15,797 nt of DNA. It comes from Promethearchaeota archaeon (GTDB lineage: Archaea; Asgardarchaeota; Lokiarchaeia; Sigyniarchaeales; SOKP01). Below the pieces are notes generated by a model. It saw nothing but the letters and a program-made list of their open reading frames with translations. It had not been told where the DNA came from and ran no database searches. Positions 165-13,019 of the stretch are shown one piece after another (the stretch's first letter is position 1; each line of letters starts with the position of its first letter). The stretch spans positions 1-15,797 of the forward strand of contig JBHLNT010000095.1 of NCBI GenBank assembly GCA_048941265.1, written 5' to 3'. The position numbers and the translations under genes were made by a program.

Positions 165-2183
165 TTATTTTAATTTTGCTTTTATTTCTTCATAAAAATC
201 TAAGGAATCCGGATTTCTAAGAGCACCTCGGTTAGCTACAGGCATATCATGTATGATCTTGGTAACTGCGATTTCAACTTTTTTATTGCTGAATGTATAC
301 GGTATGCCATCTGGAGGTGTCTGAAAGATTAATCCAGGGATATGTCGAGGAGAGGTTTTTTCTCGTAGTGTTTGCTTTATTTTTGCCTTTAAATCATCAT
401 TTAATGTATATCCTTCATTAAGAAGAACAAACATGATAATTCGGATATCACCTTCGAATTTCTGACCTATAACAAGCGAATCTGCTACTTCAGGTAATTG
501 TTCAACTACGTTATAAATCTCTGCTGTTCCAATTCGGACACCACTTGGTTTCAAAACCGCATCTGATCTTCCCCAAAATGTTATACCTCCTGTATCGCTA
601 TGAATTACTATATAATCTCCATGCCTCCAGACATTTTTTCCAGTATCTTTGAAGAACTCAAAATAGGCGGCTTTATATTTTGTCATATTATCGTCATCAC
701 CCCAAAAATAAACAGGCATTGAGGGTGCGGGAGCCTCACACACAAGTTCAGCTTGTTCATCTTCAACGGGTTCAGCGTTTTCATTATAAGATTCCACTTT
801 CATACCTAATGCTCTCCCCTGTAACTCCCCTGAATACACAGGAAGAATTGGAATAGCCCCTGCAAAACATCCATTTATATCTGTACCACCGCTAATCGAA
901 TTGAAGTATAGATCTTTTTTAATTTCTCGGTACACGTATTCAAAACCTTCTGGAGAAAGAGTAGATGCTGTTTGTGAAATCTCTCTTAGTGAACTTAAAT
1001 CGTATTTTTCGGCGGGTTTAAGCTCAAGACCCATTAGGTAATGTATATAAGCAGCACTAGTACCAAAGATAGTAATTTTGTGTTTTTCCATGAATTCAAA
1101 AAATCTTAATGGATCTGGGTATAAGGGATTACCATCATACAAGAATATCGTTGCACCCGTCGCTAAGGCACTGATAAGCCAGTTCCACATTTTGGCTGGT
1201 ATAAGAAAATCTTATATCATCATCCATGAGGGCGCAGTGATATAATTTAGCACATCGCTTCTTTTAACATCAGTAGAAAGGATAAGCTCTTTTAAATGAT
1301 TAATAAGAACACCTCCTGCGCTTTGTACCATACACTTTGGTTTGCCAGTCGTGCCAGATGAGAACATTACAAAAACGGGATGATCAAAGGGTAATTGTTC
1401 AAAATCTATTTTGGGATCTACTTCTTTGGCAATAAAATCCTCCCAATTAACTGCCTTTGGAATGCCAGTAACATCTGCTTTGCCATCAGAAATATATGAC
1501 ACAACAACCACTTTCTCAATAGAGGGGATTGCTTCGACCACTTTCTTAGCATTCTCTCTAATATCAAACGCTTGATCCCTATAAAAATATCCGTCCACTG
1601 TAAAGAGTACTTTGGGTTCGATTTGACCGAATCTGTCTATGACCGCGCTTGACTGTAATTCAGCTCCGCAAGAAGCCCATGTTGCTCCAATTGTGGTTGC
1701 GGCAAGCATCGCTGTAGGAGTTTCGATTAAGTTTGGAATATAGGATACAACTCTATCTCCGATTTTCACTCCCATATCTTTTAAAGATTTTGCTAAGCGA
1801 GCTACGGTTTTATTTAATTCAGAATACGTAATTTGCTTAGATACTTTTGTTTCTCCTTGAAAAATGAAGGCTAGTTGATTATCTTTATATTTCAAAAGAT
1901 TTTCAGCAAAATTTAGACGTGCTCCGGGAAACCATTTAGTTCCCGGAAATACCCTTAGATCCTCAACCACTTTATCATATTTCTTAGAATATACAATTTC
2001 TCCAAAATCCCACATAGCTTCCCAAAATTCGGGTATACTTTCCACTGACCATTTGTATAGATCTTTACCTCCATTAATTCTTTGACCATGTATTTTATTT
2101 ACATATTCGATAAATCGAGTGACCTCTGCATTTTTTATCCATTCTTGAGATGGTTCCCATAATTTTTTTCTTTTATCACTCAT
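165..2183 (-). CDS. acetoacetate--CoA ligase (acetoacetyl-CoA synthetase), interrupted by a 30-nt insert; predicted join 2183..1221 + 1190..165, about 662 aa
   Basis: Motifs WFPGARLNFAENLL, FSSGTTGKPKC (AMP-binding loop), SISGGTD, VWRHGD, GRSDAVLKPSGVRIGTAEIY and KKVEIAV. The two ORFs are in the same frame (2195-1190 = 1005 nt). The track ORF starts at a GTG (2195) that lies within an SD-like GAGTGA, so ATG 2183 is the likelier start. Confidence 0.92.
1191..1220 (-). other. candidate 30-nt bulge-helix-bulge (tRNA-splicing-endonuclease-type) mRNA intron with in-frame TAA
   Basis: mRNA reads CCUCA-UGGA-UG^A-UGA-UAUAAGA-UUU-UCUUAUA-CCA-GCCA-AA^A-UGUGG. It has two 3-nt bulges (UGA, AAA) on opposite strands, a 4-nt central helix UGGA/GCCA (3 Watson-Crick pairs plus A.G) and a perfect 7-bp inner stem. 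Cutting after the 2nd nt of each bulge gives UCA UGG AUG|AUG UGG AAC UGG = SWMMWNW. Confidence 0.75.
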
Positions 2184-4360: not shown

Positions 4361-5419
4361 GTGCCAAAATTAATAAAAAACATCTCCAAAAAAGCGGGTC
4401 TTCCACCAGGTACCCTTTTGTATGTAGGAGACGAGAAGAAGGAGAAGGTTAAAATCCAAATGATAACTTATGATAAAAATGAATTTGACGAGAAAGAGAT
4501 AACCTTTATAGATGATGCCGTTTCTCAAATGGATCGTTCTAAGATAACATGGATAAAAATATCGGGAGTACATGATGTCAAAATCATACAAAAAATTGGA
4601 GATCTCTTACATATACATCCACTTGTGTTAGAAGATATTATGAATACAGAGCAACGTCCTAAAACTGAAATATTTAATGACTATATTTTTATCATTTTAA
4701 AAAGATTTTACTTTTCTGAACAGAAGGAAAGATTGAACGAAGAGCAAATAAGTATAATTTTAGGTTCAAATCTATTGGTTTCTTTTCAAGAACAAGAGTT
4801 TGATACATTTAATAACGTCCGAATAAGAATAAAGGAAAATATGGGGGTTATAAGAAACATGGGAGCAGATTTTCTTACTTATAGCATAATCGATATTATA
4901 GTAGACGATTATTTTAAAATCTTAGAAAAGTTATCTAATATGATTGAGAAAATTGAAGAAGATTTTATAAAGAACCCCGAGCAAGAAATTCTTCAATTAT
5001 TGTTTAAAGTTAGAAGGGAAATTCTCATATTACAAAAATCTATTTTACCATTGAGAGAAGTAATAAATGGATTAGAAAAAACTAAATTTATTGATCAGTC
5101 AACATATCTGTTTTTCAAGGATATATATGATCATATAATTCACATTTTAGATATGATTGAACTATTGAGAAATATAATGATTGAAATGATTAATCTCTAC
5201 CTTTCAAGTGTTAGTAATAAATTAAATGAAGTTATGAAATTATTAACGATTGTTTCTACAATATTTATACCAATAACATTTTTAGCTAGTCTCTATGGAA
5301 TGAATTTTCTTTTTCTTCCAGGTTCAAATTTGTATTATGGTTTTTTTATATTGTTAATATTAATGTTATTAATAAGTATAACGATGTTGATTTATTTTAG
5401 AAAAATAAAATGGTTATAA
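4361..5419 (+). CDS. corA: magnesium/cobalt transporter CorA
   Basis: N-terminal KAGLPPGTL.YVG, HPLVLEDIMNTEQRPK, NEVMKLLT...FIPITFLASLYGMNF signature, two C-terminal TM helices. GTG start with purine-rich GAGTGAGGA upstream. Confidence 0.95.
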   Translation: MPKLIKNISKKAGLPPGTLLYVGDEKKEKVKIQMITYDKNEFDEKEITFIDDAVSQMDRSKITWIKISGVHDVKIIQKIGDLLHIHPLVLEDIMNTEQRPKTEIFNDYIFIILKRFYFSEQKERLNEEQISIILGSNLLVSFQEQEFDTFNNVRIRIKENMGVIRNMGADFLTYSIIDIIVDDYFKILEKLSNMIEKIEEDFIKNPEQEILQLLFKVRREILILQKSILPLREVINGLEKTKFIDQSTYLFFKDIYDHIIHILDMIELLRNIMIEMINLYLSSVSNKLNEVMKLLTIVSTIFIPITFLASLYGMNFLFLPGSNLYYGFFILLILMLLISITMLIYFRKIKWL

Positions 5420-5669: not shown

Positions 5670-8084
5670 ATGCTTTCAACGGATACAATGGTTTATAAGG
5701 ATATCTCAATCGAAAATGCAATTAAAATATTAGATGTATCATTAAATGGTCTAACCGAAACAGAAGCCTCCCAGAGAATTGCACTATTTGGAGAAAATAG
5801 AATTCAAGAACAAAAAAAAAATCCACTTTTAGAGTTTTTTTCTCGATATTGGGGACCTATGCCATGGTTATTAGAATTAGCAATGTTGCTCTCATTTTTA
5901 GTAGGTCATTATATTGAAGTTATAATAATTTTCGTATTGCTTACTGTTAATGTGATTATTGGTTTTATTCATAATCTTAATTCACAAAAAGCATTAGAAT
6001 ATCTTAAAAAAAGGCTGGCAATTAAAGCTAATATATTACGTGATGGAAAATGGATTTTGAAAGATTCTTTTGAGATTGTGCCTGGAGATATTTTTAGAGT
6101 TGAACTTGGTGATGTTATTCCTGCTGATTCCAAAATTATCAATGGTGAACTCTCAGTTGATCAATCTGTTCTTACTGGTGAATCTTTTCCTATAAATAAA
6201 CATAGATCAGATATCCTCTTTTCGGGTAGTATGGCCATTCACGGTGAAGCTAAATGCTTAGCTGTAAATACAGGCTTAAATACATATTTCGGTAAAACAA
6301 TTGAATTAGTTAAAATAGCGAAGCCAAAATCTCATCAAGAAGAGTTAATATTAACTATTAACAAATATATGTTATATATTGGAATCATAGCGTTAGCCTT
6401 AGTAATAATAAATGCTTTATTTTTGAAAAAAGATTTCCTATCAATAATTACCTTTGCAGCTATTTTTTTGATTGGATCTGTTCCGATAGCATTGCCTGCA
6501 GTATTTACTATTGTTCAGTCTGTCGGTGCTAAAGAACTTTCTAAAAAAGATGCTTTAGTGACTAAGCTTGATTCAATCGAGGATGCAGCCTCAATGAATA
6601 TACTATTTATTGATAAAACTGGTACAATTACCCAAAATAAACTATCAATTGTTAATATTGTTTCTTTTTCAGGGTATAATACTGATGATGTAATTAAAAT
6701 CGCCAGTTTAGCCTCTAATGAAGAAAGTAAAGAAGCTATTGATATTATTATAATTGATTATGCGAGGAAAAATAATATTGATTTTAAAATATATAAAAAA
6801 ATTGAATTCACCCCATTCGATCCATCAATCAAACGTTCAGAAGCTATAATTGAAACTAATGGGACAACATTTAAGGGAATAAAGGGTTCTCCACCAATCG
6901 TATTATCTCTTTGCACTGGCTTGGATCAAGATTCTCGAGTCAAGATAAATAATACTTTAGAGGAATTATCTATGAAAGGATATAGAACTCTTGGAGTTGC
7001 GGTGTCAAAAAAAAAAGATTTTGAAAATATACAATTTATTGGAATAATCACATTTGCTGATCCTATTAGAAATGATTCGAAACACATGATTGAAGAACTT
7101 AAAAGTCTAGGTATAAAACCTATTATGCTCACAGGTGACAGTCTTAGTATAGCAAAGGAGATTGCTTCACAATCTTCGTTTGGAACCAATATACTTCAAA
7201 TGAATACTCTAAGAGATTTGATTGATAGATATCAAGTAAAAGATATTGAGAGTATCGATGGAGTTGCTGAGATTTATCCCGAAGATAAATATAAAATAGT
7301 AAAATTTTTACAGTCAATAGGACATATTGTTGGAATGACTGGCGATGGTTTAAATGATGCTCCTGCCTTAAAACAAGCAGAAATGGGAATCGCTGTAAGT
7401 AATTCTACAGATGTCGCTAAAGCATCTGCTGATATAGTTTTAATGACAGAAGGCTTAGGCGTTATAAATGATACAATAAAAATTAGTAGGAAAATTTATC
7501 AACGAATGCTTTCTTGGGTAATAAATAAAGTATCTAAAGTTATACAAATTATTGGAATACTTGTTATAGCTTTTTTTTGGTTAGATTATATCATAATAAC
7601 TCTTATAGGTATGGTTTTGATTATGTTTGCGAATGATTTTGTCACTATCTCATTAGCAACAGATAATGTAAAACATACTCCTAATCCAAATTATTGGAAC
7701 GTGAAAAAAATAATGTTGTCATCCTCAGTAATTGGAATATTATTAGTTATACAAGGATTAATTGCTATACAAATTGGCTTAGTATTTTTCCAATTAGGTA
7801 TCGAGAAATTAAGTGCATTTATAATATTGTTAGTTATATTTTCTAGTCAATTTAGAGCATATATTGTAAGGGAAAGAAGACATTTCTGGTCCTCAAAGCC
7901 TTGTAAAGAACTTATAATCTCAACTTCTGCGGCAATTGTTATATTTATTTTCATCGGTTTATATGGATTAATTATTCCATCTCTAACATTAAGCCAAATA
8001 ATTTTTATCCTTATATATTCAGCATTATTTACATTTAGTATAGATATTCCAAAATATTACATATTTCGAAAAACGGGATTATAG
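5670..8084 (+). CDS. plasma-membrane proton-efflux P-type ATPase (P3A), paralogue 1
   Basis: WGPMPW, DQSVLTGES, PIALP (M4), DKTGT phosphorylation site, PFDP..KR, TGD, TGDGLNDAPALK, M6 ..AND. Confidence 0.9.
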   Translation: MLSTDTMVYKDISIENAIKILDVSLNGLTETEASQRIALFGENRIQEQKKNPLLEFFSRYWGPMPWLLELAMLLSFLVGHYIEVIIIFVLLTVNVIIGFIHNLNSQKALEYLKKRLAIKANILRDGKWILKDSFEIVPGDIFRVELGDVIPADSKIINGELSVDQSVLTGESFPINKHRSDILFSGSMAIHGEAKCLAVNTGLNTYFGKTIELVKIAKPKSHQEELILTINKYMLYIGIIALALVIINALFLKKDFLSIITFAAIFLIGSVPIALPAVFTIVQSVGAKELSKKDALVTKLDSIEDAASMNILFIDKTGTITQNKLSIVNIVSFSGYNTDDVIKIASLASNEESKEAIDIIIIDYARKNNIDFKIYKKIEFTPFDPSIKRSEAIIETNGTTFKGIKGSPPIVLSLCTGLDQDSRVKINNTLEELSMKGYRTLGVAVSKKKDFENIQFIGIITFADPIRNDSKHMIEELKSLGIKPIMLTGDSLSIAKEIASQSSFGTNILQMNTLRDLIDRYQVKDIESIDGVAEIYPEDKYKIVKFLQSIGHIVGMTGDGLNDAPALKQAEMGIAVSNSTDVAKASADIVLMTEGLGVINDTIKISRKIYQRMLSWVINKVSKVIQIIGILVIAFFWLDYIIITLIGMVLIMFANDFVTISLATDNVKHTPNPNYWNVKKIMLSSSVIGILLVIQGLIAIQIGLVFFQLGIEKLSAFIILLVIFSSQFRAYIVRERRHFWSSKPCKELIISTSAAIVIFIFIGLYGLIIPSLTLSQIIFILIYSALFTFSIDIPKYYIFRKTGL

Positions 8085-10568: not shown

Positions 10569-13019
10569 ATGATGAGTCAACAAATTATTACTCAAGAAGA
10601 GGCTAAGAATAATGAAATCAGTGAAGTATTTAATAAATTACATGCACAAGAAAACGGACTCACCTCCTCTGAGGCAAAAAATCGCTTAGAAATATATGGT
10701 CCAAATGAAATCCCTGAAAAGAAAGAAAAACCGATAATAAAGTTTCTACGAAATTTTTGGGGTCCTATCCCTTGGATGATAGAAATTGCAGCTATATTAT
10801 CTATTATAATTGGAGAATTGGATGATTTCTTTGTGATTTTAGCTATGTTGTTAATAAATGCAGTAGTTAGATTTTGGGAAGAGAATAAAGCCGATAATGC
10901 GGTGGAGTTATTAAAACAGAAATTGGCATTGGAAGCACGAGTTTTAAGAGATGGAAAATGGACAGAGTTATTAGCAAGTGGACTTGTACCTGGAGATGTT
11001 ATTCGGGTACGATTAGGAGATATTGTGCCTGCAGATATTAAGTTGTTTGAAGGTGAATTTCTTACATTAGATGAATCTGTATTAACGGGTGAATCTTTAC
11101 CAGTAGACAAAAAAGCTTCTGACATCGCTTATGAGGGTGCAATAGTTAAAAAAGGTGAAATGAATGGGGTTGTAGTTGGTACAGCCACTAATACTTTTTT
11201 TGGTAAGACTACATCTTTAGTTTCTGAAGCTAAAACTAGAAGTCATTTTCAAAAAGCAGTGGTAAAGATAGGAAATTATTTAATTATTTTAGCTATTAGC
11301 TTAGTAACAATTGTGTTTATTGTAGGTTTAATGAGAAATGAAAGTCCATTGGCGTTATTACAATTTACATTAGTATTAATTATTGCGGCAATACCTGTTG
11401 CATTACCTGCCGTTTTAATGGTTTCAATGGCAGTTGGAGCAGCCGACCTTGCTAAAAAAAAAGCTATTGCTAAAAAATTATTATCAATTGAAGAAATGGC
11501 AAGTATGGATATACTATGCTCAGATAAAACAGGCACAATTACTAAAAATGAAATTTCGGTCGGTGAAATAATACCATTAGAAGATTTCTCCCAGGAAGAA
11601 GTTATAAAATATGGTGTTTTGGCGTCAAGAGAAGAAGATAAAGATCCTATAGATGATGCATTCTTTAGTAAATTTAAAGAGTTTAATGGAGATGTTTCAG
11701 GATATAAAGTTTCGAAATTTCAACCATTTGATCCCGTAATCAAGCGAACAGAAGCTCAAGTTGAGAAAGGAAGTGAAAAAGTAAAAGTATCTAAAGGAGC
11801 AATTCAAGTTATTTTATCTTTGGTTTCTAATAAAGAACAAATTGCTTCCCAAATTGAACAACAAGGAGAAATGTTCGCACAACAAGGGTATCGTGCTTTA
11901 GGTGTTGCTAAAATGGATCCTAATGGAGTTTGGCATTATGTGGGATTAGTCGCTCTCTTTGATCCTCCACGAGAAGATTCGGCTGAGGTAATTAAAACAG
12001 CTATTTCTATGGGTGTTGATGTTAAAATGATTACAGGGGATCACAGTGCTATAGCAAAACAAATGGCTACGAAATTAGGAATGGGCACAGATTTTGTTAC
12101 TGCGTCCACGCTTTTAGAAGCAAAAGGAGATGAGGCAGTAAAGTTAGCGGAAGATGCAAATGGATTTGCAGAAGTTTATCCTGAACACAAATATAAAATT
12201 GTGGAAGATCTTCAAAATAAAGGGCATGTTATTGGTATGACAGGTGATGGAGTCAATGATGCTCCTGCGTTGAAAAAAGCAGATGTAGGTATTGCTGTAT
12301 CAAATGCTACTGATGCTGCAAAATCCGCGGCGGATATCGTTCTTACTGAACCAGGACTTTCAATTATAATCGGAGCAACTGAGGAAAGTCGAATAATTTT
12401 TGAGCGCATGAAAAGTTATGCCACTTATCGTATTGCTGAGACAGTCAGAGTGCTAATATTTCTTGTTTTAGCTATTTTAATATTTAGTTTTTATCCGATT
12501 ACAGCTATTATGATAGTGATTTTAGCTTTATTAAACGATTTACCGATAATGACAATAGCTTTTGATAATGCTAGACCTGCACCTAAACCGGTTCGATGGA
12601 AGATGAAAAGAGTACTGATTGTGGCTTCCACATTAGGTATAATCGGTGTTTTTTTCAGTTTCACGCTCTTTTTGATTGGAAGAGATGTGTTTCTACTCGA
12701 TCCACAAACATTACAGACACTAATTTTTCTTAAATTAGCAGTTGGAGGCCATATGACGATTTATTTAACTAGAGCAGAAGAGAACAACTTCTGGCATAGA
12801 CCATTTCCTGCAAAAATATTGATAATAGTCTGTGAAGTAACTCAAGTAGTTGCAACTATTTTTGCTGCGGTTGGAATCCTTATGGCCCCAATTGGTTGGA
12901 CATTAGCACTTTTCGTGTGGGCATATGCATTTTTAGCATTCGTAGTAGCAAATTTTCTAAAAGTATTAACTGTTAGGTGGCTGAATAAGAGAGAATCGAA
13001 AAATATAGAAATATTTTGA
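10569..13019 (+). CDS. plasma-membrane proton-efflux P-type ATPase (P3A), paralogue 2
   Basis: FWGPIPWMIE, LTGESLPV, IPVALP, CSDKTGT, KGA, DPPR, MITGD, TGDGVNDAPALKKAD, YRIAETVR (M5), LLND (M6). Confidence 0.95.
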   Translation: MMSQQIITQEEAKNNEISEVFNKLHAQENGLTSSEAKNRLEIYGPNEIPEKKEKPIIKFLRNFWGPIPWMIEIAAILSIIIGELDDFFVILAMLLINAVVRFWEENKADNAVELLKQKLALEARVLRDGKWTELLASGLVPGDVIRVRLGDIVPADIKLFEGEFLTLDESVLTGESLPVDKKASDIAYEGAIVKKGEMNGVVVGTATNTFFGKTTSLVSEAKTRSHFQKAVVKIGNYLIILAISLVTIVFIVGLMRNESPLALLQFTLVLIIAAIPVALPAVLMVSMAVGAADLAKKKAIAKKLLSIEEMASMDILCSDKTGTITKNEISVGEIIPLEDFSQEEVIKYGVLASREEDKDPIDDAFFSKFKEFNGDVSGYKVSKFQPFDPVIKRTEAQVEKGSEKVKVSKGAIQVILSLVSNKEQIASQIEQQGEMFAQQGYRALGVAKMDPNGVWHYVGLVALFDPPREDSAEVIKTAISMGVDVKMITGDHSAIAKQMATKLGMGTDFVTASTLLEAKGDEAVKLAEDANGFAEVYPEHKYKIVEDLQNKGHVIGMTGDGVNDAPALKKADVGIAVSNATDAAKSAADIVLTEPGLSIIIGATEESRIIFERMKSYATYRIAETVRVLIFLVLAILIFSFYPITAIMIVILALLNDLPIMTIAFDNARPAPKPVRWKMKRVLIVASTLGIIGVFFSFTLFLIGRDVFLLDPQTLQTLIFLKLAVGGHMTIYLTRAEENNFWHRPFPAKILIIVCEVTQVVATIFAAVGILMAPIGWTLALFVWAYAFLAFVVANFLKVLTVRWLNKRESKNIEIF

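Follow-up and report, generated by a model that had tools for sequence, protein, structure and literature searches.

How does an archaeon make a metabolic enzyme from a gene that is broken, within a family motif, by an in-frame stop codon? The question is raised by an acetoacetate-CoA ligase gene on the minus strand of a 15,797-nucleotide (nt) stretch of DNA, here called the window. The window is the entire contig C40 of the assembly G000 (5.0 Mb in 361 contigs, 30.5% GC, 91% complete), and the nearest orthologues of the ligase come from Promethearchaeota, the Loki-type Asgard group. We consider that the 30 nt which interrupt the gene are probably a bulge-helix-bulge (BHB) intron, spliced from the coding mRNA of the sole acetoacetate-CoA ligase gene of this Loki-type Asgard archaeon.

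Two minus-strand open reading frames (ORFs), 2183..1221 and 1190..165, are separated by 30 in-frame nt (1220..1191; ATGATATAAGATTTTCTTATACCAGCCAAA on the minus strand). As it stands, the gene reads ...ITAPSWM/MI-stop-DFLIPAK/MWNWLIS..., in which the insert frame is M-I-stop-D-F-L-I-P-A-K; the start of exon 1 can be compared with orthologue N-termini, which follow MSD(E/K)RKKLWEP. NCBIfam names both ORFs acetoacetate-CoA ligase (TIGR01217 / NF002937), and in Pfam both belong to the AMP-binding family, covering positions 8-208 and then 223-307 of the profile. On the NCBIfam profile TIGR01217, exon 1 occupies positions 3-318 (361.1 bits) and exon 2 positions 319-650 (426.6 bits). Each half alone lies below the curated cut-off of 520.9 bits; summed they exceed it, with 787.7 bits versus 787.9 for L008, an uninterrupted orthologue. 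Because the two profile ranges abut and the summed score matches that of L008, the interruption is, as judged by the profile, residue-exact: the alignment runs from 318 to 319 without a gap, inside the family motif WMMWNW. This is where a sequence-only reading of the window, which took the gene for an acetoacetyl-CoA synthetase, had already placed it (1191-1220). The predicted joined RNA is ...TCA TGG ATG/ATG TGG AAC..., with the junction ...TCATGGATG/ATGTGGAAC... (slashes mark joints); it would restore WMMWNW and give a product with the junction-spanning peptide ...ITAPSWMMWNWLISALATG.... The insert and exon 2 both begin with ATG, so the borders can be placed in any of four registers (shift 0 to +3) with an identical joined product. 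No second copy of the ligase was found in G000, where the next match is 29% identical.

Around the insert, the pre-mRNA can be drawn as the hBHBh' layout, with an exon-exon helix (h), a central helix between exon 1 and the insert (H), a hairpin within the insert (h') and two 3-nt bulges (Table 1). Helix h consists of C1231-G1185, C1230-G1186, C1228-G1188 and A1227-U1189, with U1229 facing U1187 in its middle. Helix H has three real pairs (U1226-A1193, G1225-C1194 and G1224-C1195) and one mismatch, A1223 opposite G1196. The hairpin begins with U1219-A1197 and G1218-C1198, followed by a mismatch in G000 (A1217 and C1199) and seven perfect pairs (1216-1210/1200-1206). The strand order is correct for a BHB, the 4-nt helix strand lying 5' of its bulge on both strands, and the register and bulge sizes match hBHBh' exactly; the central helix falls short of 4 bp. 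On this pairing the motif is a relaxed, non-canonical BHB, with a 3-bp H and a U.U in h. The fold drawn in the sequence-only reading thus stands in all its pairs but not as a canonical motif. Its other structural claim, that the cutting rule of the tRNA splicing endonuclease EndA leads to the borders expected from homology, is confirmed: with each bulge cut behind its second base, the cleavage sites are 1221/1220 and 1191/1190, and homology independently sets the same borders. Applied to the host tRNA-Ser(CGA) gene (G000:C138:42989-43089), the same rule returns the canonical 37/38 intron, of 18 nt.

Table 1. Features of the interrupted ligase gene and of its proposed fold. Positions are those of the window; a slash within a sequence marks a predicted cut.
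Feature	Position	Strand	Details
Exon 1	1221..2183	minus	ATG 2183-2181, 3' end ...TCA TGG ATG (S-W-M); 321 aa
Exon 2	165..1190	minus	5' end ATG TGG AAC TGG (M-W-N-W), stop codon 167-165; 341 aa
30-nt insert, candidate BHB intron	1191..1220	minus	in-frame TAA at 1214-1212
Helix h, 5' strand CCUCA (exon 1)	1227..1231	minus	partner 1185-1189
Helix h, 3' strand UGUGG (exon 2)	1185..1189	minus	fixed by Met-Trp codons
Central helix H, 5' strand UGGA (exon 1)	1223..1226	minus	partner 1193-1196
Central helix H, 3' strand GCCA (intron)	1193..1196	minus	partner 1223-1226
Bulge 1 (UG/A)	1220..1222	minus	predicted 5' cut 1221/1220
Bulge 2 (AA/A)	1190..1192	minus	predicted 3' cut 1191/1190
Intron hairpin h'	1197..1219	minus	stem 1219-1210 with 1197-1206, loop 1209-1207
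Possible long-range exon-exon helix, 5' strand GCGCCC	1230..1235	minus	RNAalifold, 21 sequences x 108 nt
Possible long-range exon-exon helix, 3' strand GGGUGC (exon 2)	1153..1158	minus	partner 1230-1235

The insert is shared by related archaea. Among 17 full orthologues from 41 related genomes, seven have a 30-nt insert at the same site and ten an uninterrupted WMMWNW. A wider search found a homologous insert of this length and position in 17 of 97 orthologous loci (12 distinct 58-nt sequences), and it occurs in at least four genus codes of the family (g1, g11, g12 and g13). Metagenome contigs provided 14 more carriers, with eight additional distinct 58-nt variants, from a scan whose pattern fixed the TAA and the borders and whose rows are therefore uninformative on the invariance of those letters. 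The genes that carry the insert are under strong purifying selection in both halves: over 45 pairs, the median ratio of non-synonymous to synonymous substitution rates (dN/dS) is 0.062 in the N-terminal half and 0.039 in the C-terminal half, compared with 0.052 in intronless genes. The synonymous sites are saturated (median dS 1.6 and 2.1), and none of the 15 full intron-bearing coding sequences contains a further stop. The claim of the sequence-only reading that this is an intact gene rather than a pseudogene is well supported by these values, and the orthologue alignment it had proposed revealed both presence and absence of the insert and, as described below, compensatory changes.

Conservation extends to the insert. 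Identity over the same 45 pairs is 90% at its 25 non-loop positions and 44% at its five loop positions; at four-fold degenerate sites of these genes it is 37%, with 31% expected at random. By this comparison, the insert itself is under selection. In the hairpin, where 92% of cells are paired, both sides change at four of the ten pairs (G-C/A-U/G-U at three and A-U/G-C at the closing pair). Pairing of the whole structure amounts to 84% and drops to 29-50% when the partners are slid. The observed number of two-sided pairs was reached in no more than 10 of 500 shuffles and the covariation score in 2 to 4 of 500; the shuffles ignore relatedness, and we take the covariation as moderate support for the fold. 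Helices H and h are uninformative on covariation because H is invariant and the 3' strand of h is fixed by the Met-Trp codons. Indeed, the U-A, G-C and G-C pairs of H are found in 21 of 21 sequences, as is the intron CCA, which is preceded by G, A or U; 76% of the cells of helix h are paired in the same 21 sequences. The letters of bulge 1 are invariant in the alignment and those of bulge 2 in the 12 sequences found without the pattern.

The exons close to the insert also differ between the two classes of allele. The Pro-Ser codons that form helix h read CCC TCA in 15 of the 19 distinct alleles with the intron but in 1 of the 17 distinct alleles without it. Identity of synonymous codons rises above the intronless background at codons -6 to -3 and +4 to +8 only, and farther out equals it. 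This raised similarity of the flanks fits a structural constraint acting on the exons. A direct comparison of helix pairing between intron-bearing and intronless alleles gave a low p for every helix tried, which we discounted as biased because the helices were derived from the intron-bearing sequences and the alleles share descent.

The sequence-only reading had supposed an Asgard host; the host is indeed of the Loki type, and its genome encodes the enzymes that splicing would call for. PF01974, the EndA family, matches one ORF on C258 with 107 bits and another on C323 with 69 bits; each is about 200 aa long and has N and C domains, and the pair would make two EndA subunits. An RtcB gene without stops scores 569 bits. 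PMC5829648 describes Asgard archaea as having an (alpha-beta)2 EndA with an L1 insert, and relaxed motifs as being cut solely by (alpha-beta)2 and epsilon2 enzymes. Introns of host tRNA genes offer a further comparison: those of tRNA-Ala (C107, 29 nt) and tRNA-Gly (C247, 31 nt) have the same build as the insert, namely 1 nt, an A/U-rich hairpin, 4 nt and a final AA before the cut. Three host tRNA introns end in ...AA/, as predicted for the insert. These comparisons consist of three hand-checked examples, the automatic definition through splicing and ARAGORN being too permissive. A probable tRNA intron on C343 likewise has three of four central pairs.

As for the tRNA genes of G000 in general, ARAGORN reports 10-12 and the Rfam tRNA model 22. 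Twelve of these 22 matches are 101-137 nt long and hence intron-bearing (e.g. C107:2862-2962, C247:432-534 and C183:8413-8549), and some introns lie at non-canonical positions, e.g. tRNA nt 32 and 52. Many tRNA genes of this genome are probably too disrupted for standard finders.

What is observed is the anatomy of the site, how it is conserved and covaries, an intact gene and a host that has the enzymes; from these we infer cleavage and ligation along the following lines. In the pre-mRNA, CCUCA of exon 1 would pair with UGUGG of exon 2, the Trp codon UGG of exon 1 would pair with the intron CCA, and the rest of the intron would fold as a hairpin of 9-10 bp, leaving two 3-nt bulges, UG/A and AA/A, on opposite strands. 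The two-subunit EndA of the host would cut after the second base of each bulge, and RtcB would ligate the exons, thereby restoring WMMWNW. On unspliced mRNA, translation would stop at the in-frame TAA, after SWMMI, and the full-length enzyme would therefore depend on splicing.

Several observations weigh against a BHB intron, and the first concern the fold. The geometry alone is just moderately rare in a genome of 30.5% GC: a 30-nt layout this good (at least 3/4 pairs in H, 4/5 in h and 9/10 in h') occurs at 321 of 9,978,984 genome positions (3.2e-5), and where a hairpin is already in register (17,008 cases) the flanks fit in 1.9%. Thermodynamic folding does not select the BHB conformer, the 67-nt fold having a z of 0.01. 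In 8 of 12 sequences the minimum free energy structure is instead an exon-exon helix plus hairpin with a 6x6 internal loop, and in those eight the BHB form is less stable by 1.3-2.3 kcal/mol. The intron hairpin is present in every fold computed, and RNAalifold predicts helix h from the 58-nt alignment; from the 108-nt alignment, it pairs the intron CCA with a downstream UGG. The same 108-nt alignment gave the possible long-range helix 1230-1235/1153-1158, which surrounds the intron together with 32 nt of exon 2 and is paired in 94% of cells over 21 sequences, with both sides changing at two of its six pairs, at third codon positions. This helix shares two bases with helix h and thus competes with it. 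Across the 21 sequences the weak points of the motif recur: the fourth position of H is A.G or A.A in 20 of them (L054 alone has A-U, and hence four pairs), and the U.U in helix h is present in 20. Moreover, synonymous changes of the Ser/Pro codons abolish most of helix h in L010 and weaken it in L135 and L139.

Other points on this side regard what is conserved beyond the motif. The TAA, the exact in-frame length of 30 nt and the ATG on both sides are invariant, and the BHB model needs none of them; ribosome hopping or a stop/start cassette would suit them. Hitch-hiking with a short recombination tract could account for the flanks being more similar, and the biased helix comparison does not separate this from a structural constraint. 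Finally, our screens of the genome (structural, hairpin-first and paralogue-based) gave no convincing second mRNA intron, which leaves room for such introns in other mRNAs of this genome. The structural scan, for lengths of 12-130, returned about 2.9 million motif matches, of which 13,831 passed the open-frame filter, mostly ordinary gene junctions; at the threshold used it missed the true site, whose motif scored 9/12 under that weighting. The hairpin-first scan did include the true site among its 2,337 candidates and was likewise not selective. The paralogue-based search for split genes reduced 3,391 ORF pairs to 22 candidates, with the ligase gene recovered as a positive control. Of the genome-wide scan of split genes proposed in the sequence-only reading, this search delivered the control but no further convincing case. 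Copies of the insert elsewhere in the genome are also lacking: the best blastn-short match is 16 nt, so the insert does not belong to a repeat family.

One alternative is programmed translational bypassing, in which the ribosome would decode the second Met codon (1220-1218), leave at the hairpin, slide over 27 nt and land on the ATG at 1190-1188, so that an identical WMMWNW protein would arise with the RNA left unprocessed. Documented cases of bypassing come from phage T4 gene 60 and yeast mitochondria; none is known from archaea. The take-off and landing codons of the ligase would be identical (ATG/ATG), as bypassing would have it, but both ATGs are fixed anyway since they encode the two Met residues of the motif. 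It would also suit this mechanism that the conserved hairpin begins at the take-off codon, that the in-frame TAA is invariant in 12/12 sequences found without the pattern and that the length of the gap does not vary. However, the stop is not adjacent to the take-off site, a sense codon (ATA, GTA or GTG) lying between the two, and bypassing leaves unexplained the invariant CCA opposite the exon UGG, the hairpin offsets of 1 nt and 6 nt, which agree with a BHB layout, and the like-built tRNA introns of the host. We regard it as improbable.

Alternatively, the insert might be a stop/start cassette and the ligase a two-piece enzyme, with an N-terminal fragment ending in ...SWMM(I/V)-stop and a C-terminal fragment that starts at the ATG 21 nt further on (M-WNW...), the two assembling unjoined. 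Neither the TAA nor the ATG that follows it varies, purifying selection acts on both halves, and 30 nt shifted by 3 supply exactly one stop and one start codon. Nevertheless, the break would lie inside the most conserved motif of the family, where the profile is matched without gap or overlap. No Shine-Dalgarno-like word precedes the ATG: the tail of the insert, CCAGCCAAA, is without the GGTGA-like words that are enriched before starts (in the words before 2,371 starts, CCAG occurs 11 times versus 65 in coding background, and GTGA 258 times versus 60). This explanation also gives no reason for a covarying hairpin or for the pairing of CCA with UGG, and close relatives of the gene are uninterrupted, L008 being 93.5% identical in DNA to the intron-bearing L005. 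Such an enzyme seems to us quite improbable.

A third possibility is that the insert is a conserved RNA or DNA element that is never removed, such as a translational attenuator or a nuclease site limiting the enzyme to a truncated form, or that the gene is decaying and is still intact owing to a recent origin. In favour of such a reading, conservation and structure are the only direct facts, and genes interrupted by a simple TAA do occur elsewhere in G000. Against it, the C-terminal half past the stop is constrained like the N-terminal half (dN/dS 0.039) at saturated dS, which would be unexpected if it were not translated, and the interruption persists across at least four genus codes. We judge this very improbable. 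An assembly artefact was rejected by the homologous insert at the same site in 17/97 loci and 14 metagenome contigs, a pseudogene by a dN/dS of 0.04-0.06 in both halves (45 pairs) and the lack of any further stop in the 15 intron-bearing coding sequences, and a group I or group II intron or an intein by the 30-nt size of the insert and its stop codon.

If the insert is a BHB intron, how it comes and goes is of interest in its own right. A maximum-likelihood tree, quickly computed from 64 proteins (54 different), places its 15 intron-bearing rows such that nine or more state changes are required, eight of them forced by well-supported branches. The pair L005 (intron) and L008 (intronless) may indicate how such changes arise. 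Over their whole length they have the DNA identity given above, while from -60 to +200 around the site it is 84%, and the divergent patch measures about 260 nt (region of L005:2512-2543 versus that of L008:2466-2467). Inside the patch, the alleles closest to L005 are other intron bearers and those closest to L008 lack the intron; elsewhere, L005 and L008 are mutually closest, at 94.5-95.2% versus about 80-82% for the next allele. The patch looks like a gene-conversion tract, in which either allele could be the recombinant. The intron state thus probably moves by homologous recombination that carries adjacent exon sequence. A separate observation on these loci is that a stretch resembling the ligase C-terminus (last 30-65 residues, 56-89% identity) lies 0.5-0.9 kb downstream on the same strand at several related loci (L005:761-871, L007:597-680, L010:4101-4310, L030:4225-4320, L040:4075-4281, L052:4346-4498 and L057:4018-4149). 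Among the matches listed in the same search, there is no second C-terminal-like match at the window's own locus (L004).

The other candidates of the paralogue-based search look like single stop codons, frameshifts or neighbouring genes, and none has a convincing BHB. Three of the genes found, paralogues of one another, are each interrupted by one in-frame TGA, with FPTDDC(G/A/S)I-stop as its context (C251:11304-11306, C301:41104-41106 and C350:5783-5785), and align straight through the TGA to a 797-aa paralogue on C20; we take them to resemble selenocysteine-containing HdrA-like proteins. Five others have a single in-frame TAA past which the paralogue alignment continues (C66:3203-3205, C9:1173-1175, C142:3682-3684, C87:908-910 and C102:4437-4439). 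These could be pseudogenes or sequencing errors, and simple nonsense lesions do exist in the assembly. Elsewhere in the window, the plus strand encodes two P-type cation ATPases that are paralogues of each other (804 aa at 5670-8084 and 816 aa at 10569-13019). A CorA Mg2+ channel (4361-5419) is located near them, and a universal stress protein and a protease resembling Rce1 are encoded between these ion-transport genes. The region has the look of an ordinary set of genes for ion homeostasis and seems to have no relation to the ligase.

In the literature we searched, BHB introns in protein-coding genes are known for the single gene cbf5, in one archaeal phylum, and for one case in a 5' untranslated region (5' UTR). 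An intron in a metabolic gene of Asgard archaea would mean that mRNAs are probably among the substrates of the tRNA-splicing enzymes in the lineage nearest to eukaryotes, and eukaryotes use this ligase family to splice XBP1/HAC1 mRNA. There is also a practical side, as gene callers will list such genes as two fragments or as pseudogenes, distorting metabolic reconstructions of uncultured archaea. Besides, the many intron-plus and intron-minus alleles at one site, together with the recombination patch, form a natural system for the study of intron gain and loss. One may go further and picture EndA and RtcB as also acting on mRNA in Loki-type Asgard archaea, with a mobile mini-intron that spreads by recombination and whose stop makes a central ketone-body/CoA enzyme dependent on splicing. 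This would be an archaeal counterpart of RtcB-dependent splicing of the HAC1/XBP1 type, with the long-range helix 1230-1235/1153-1158 as part of a larger splice platform. This wider picture is tentative, and as a whole we rather doubt it.

How does the ligase insert compare with known systems? In phage T4 gene 60, a short untranslated gap with matching end codons and a hairpin has its stop directly after the take-off codon. The ligase gene likewise has a short gap in its coding sequence, matching codons, a hairpin and a stop codon, but with a sense codon between take-off and stop. The tRNA introns of the host (C138 Ser, C107 Ala and C247 Gly) are of the same size class (18-31 nt) and build, and presumably depend on the same enzymes; unlike them, the insert sits in an mRNA, where the exon side is limited by codons, and we found no sequence similarity between them beyond the best blastn-short match already mentioned. 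HAC1/XBP1 splicing relies on IRE1 and not on EndA/TSEN, uses a motif of two stem-loops and is regulated by stress. Both endonuclease and motif thus differ from those proposed here, and nothing indicates that the ligase intron is regulated. HAC1/XBP1 is a case of unconventional cytoplasmic mRNA splicing (PMC13149111; also cited in PMC5829648), with a cut by IRE1 and joining by a tRNA ligase or RtcB. With it the ligase would share a very short intron in the coding sequence, a structure-guided protein endonuclease, a tRNA-type ligase and the fact that splicing decides which protein is made.

Closer parallels come from archaea. The HVO_1309 mRNA of Haloferax volcanii carries a BHB intron in its 5' UTR and was confirmed in vitro as a substrate of the splicing endonuclease (PMC7714728). 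An mRNA as proposed substrate of an archaeal splicing endonuclease is common to both cases, but the intron of HVO_1309 lies in an untranslated leader, breaks no reading frame and belongs to a euryarchaeal host. The pre-mRNA of cbf5 (pseudouridine synthase) contains a BHB intron in Crenarchaeota (Desulfurococcales and Sulfolobales; PMC2738675) and is cited as the one mRNA case (PMC7714728, PMC5829648). Both cbf5 and the ligase would combine a short intron in an archaeal coding sequence, a BHB context, a host with a two-subunit EndA and a patchy presence among lineages. Unlike cbf5, the ligase is a metabolic CoA enzyme and not an RNA-modification enzyme, its host is a Loki-type Asgard archaeon and not a crenarchaeon, and its motif is relaxed, with a 3-bp central helix. 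The intron state of the ligase also changes far more often, with at least nine changes in the 64-row tree where two or more losses are reported in cbf5, and the ligase has a recombination patch. The splicing of cbf5 was shown experimentally, whereas that of the ligase is deduced from sequence. In the literature searched, supplements aside, we found no description of a BHB intron in an Asgard protein-coding gene. The presumed mechanism would thus already be known from cbf5, and what appears to be new is the gene and the lineage.

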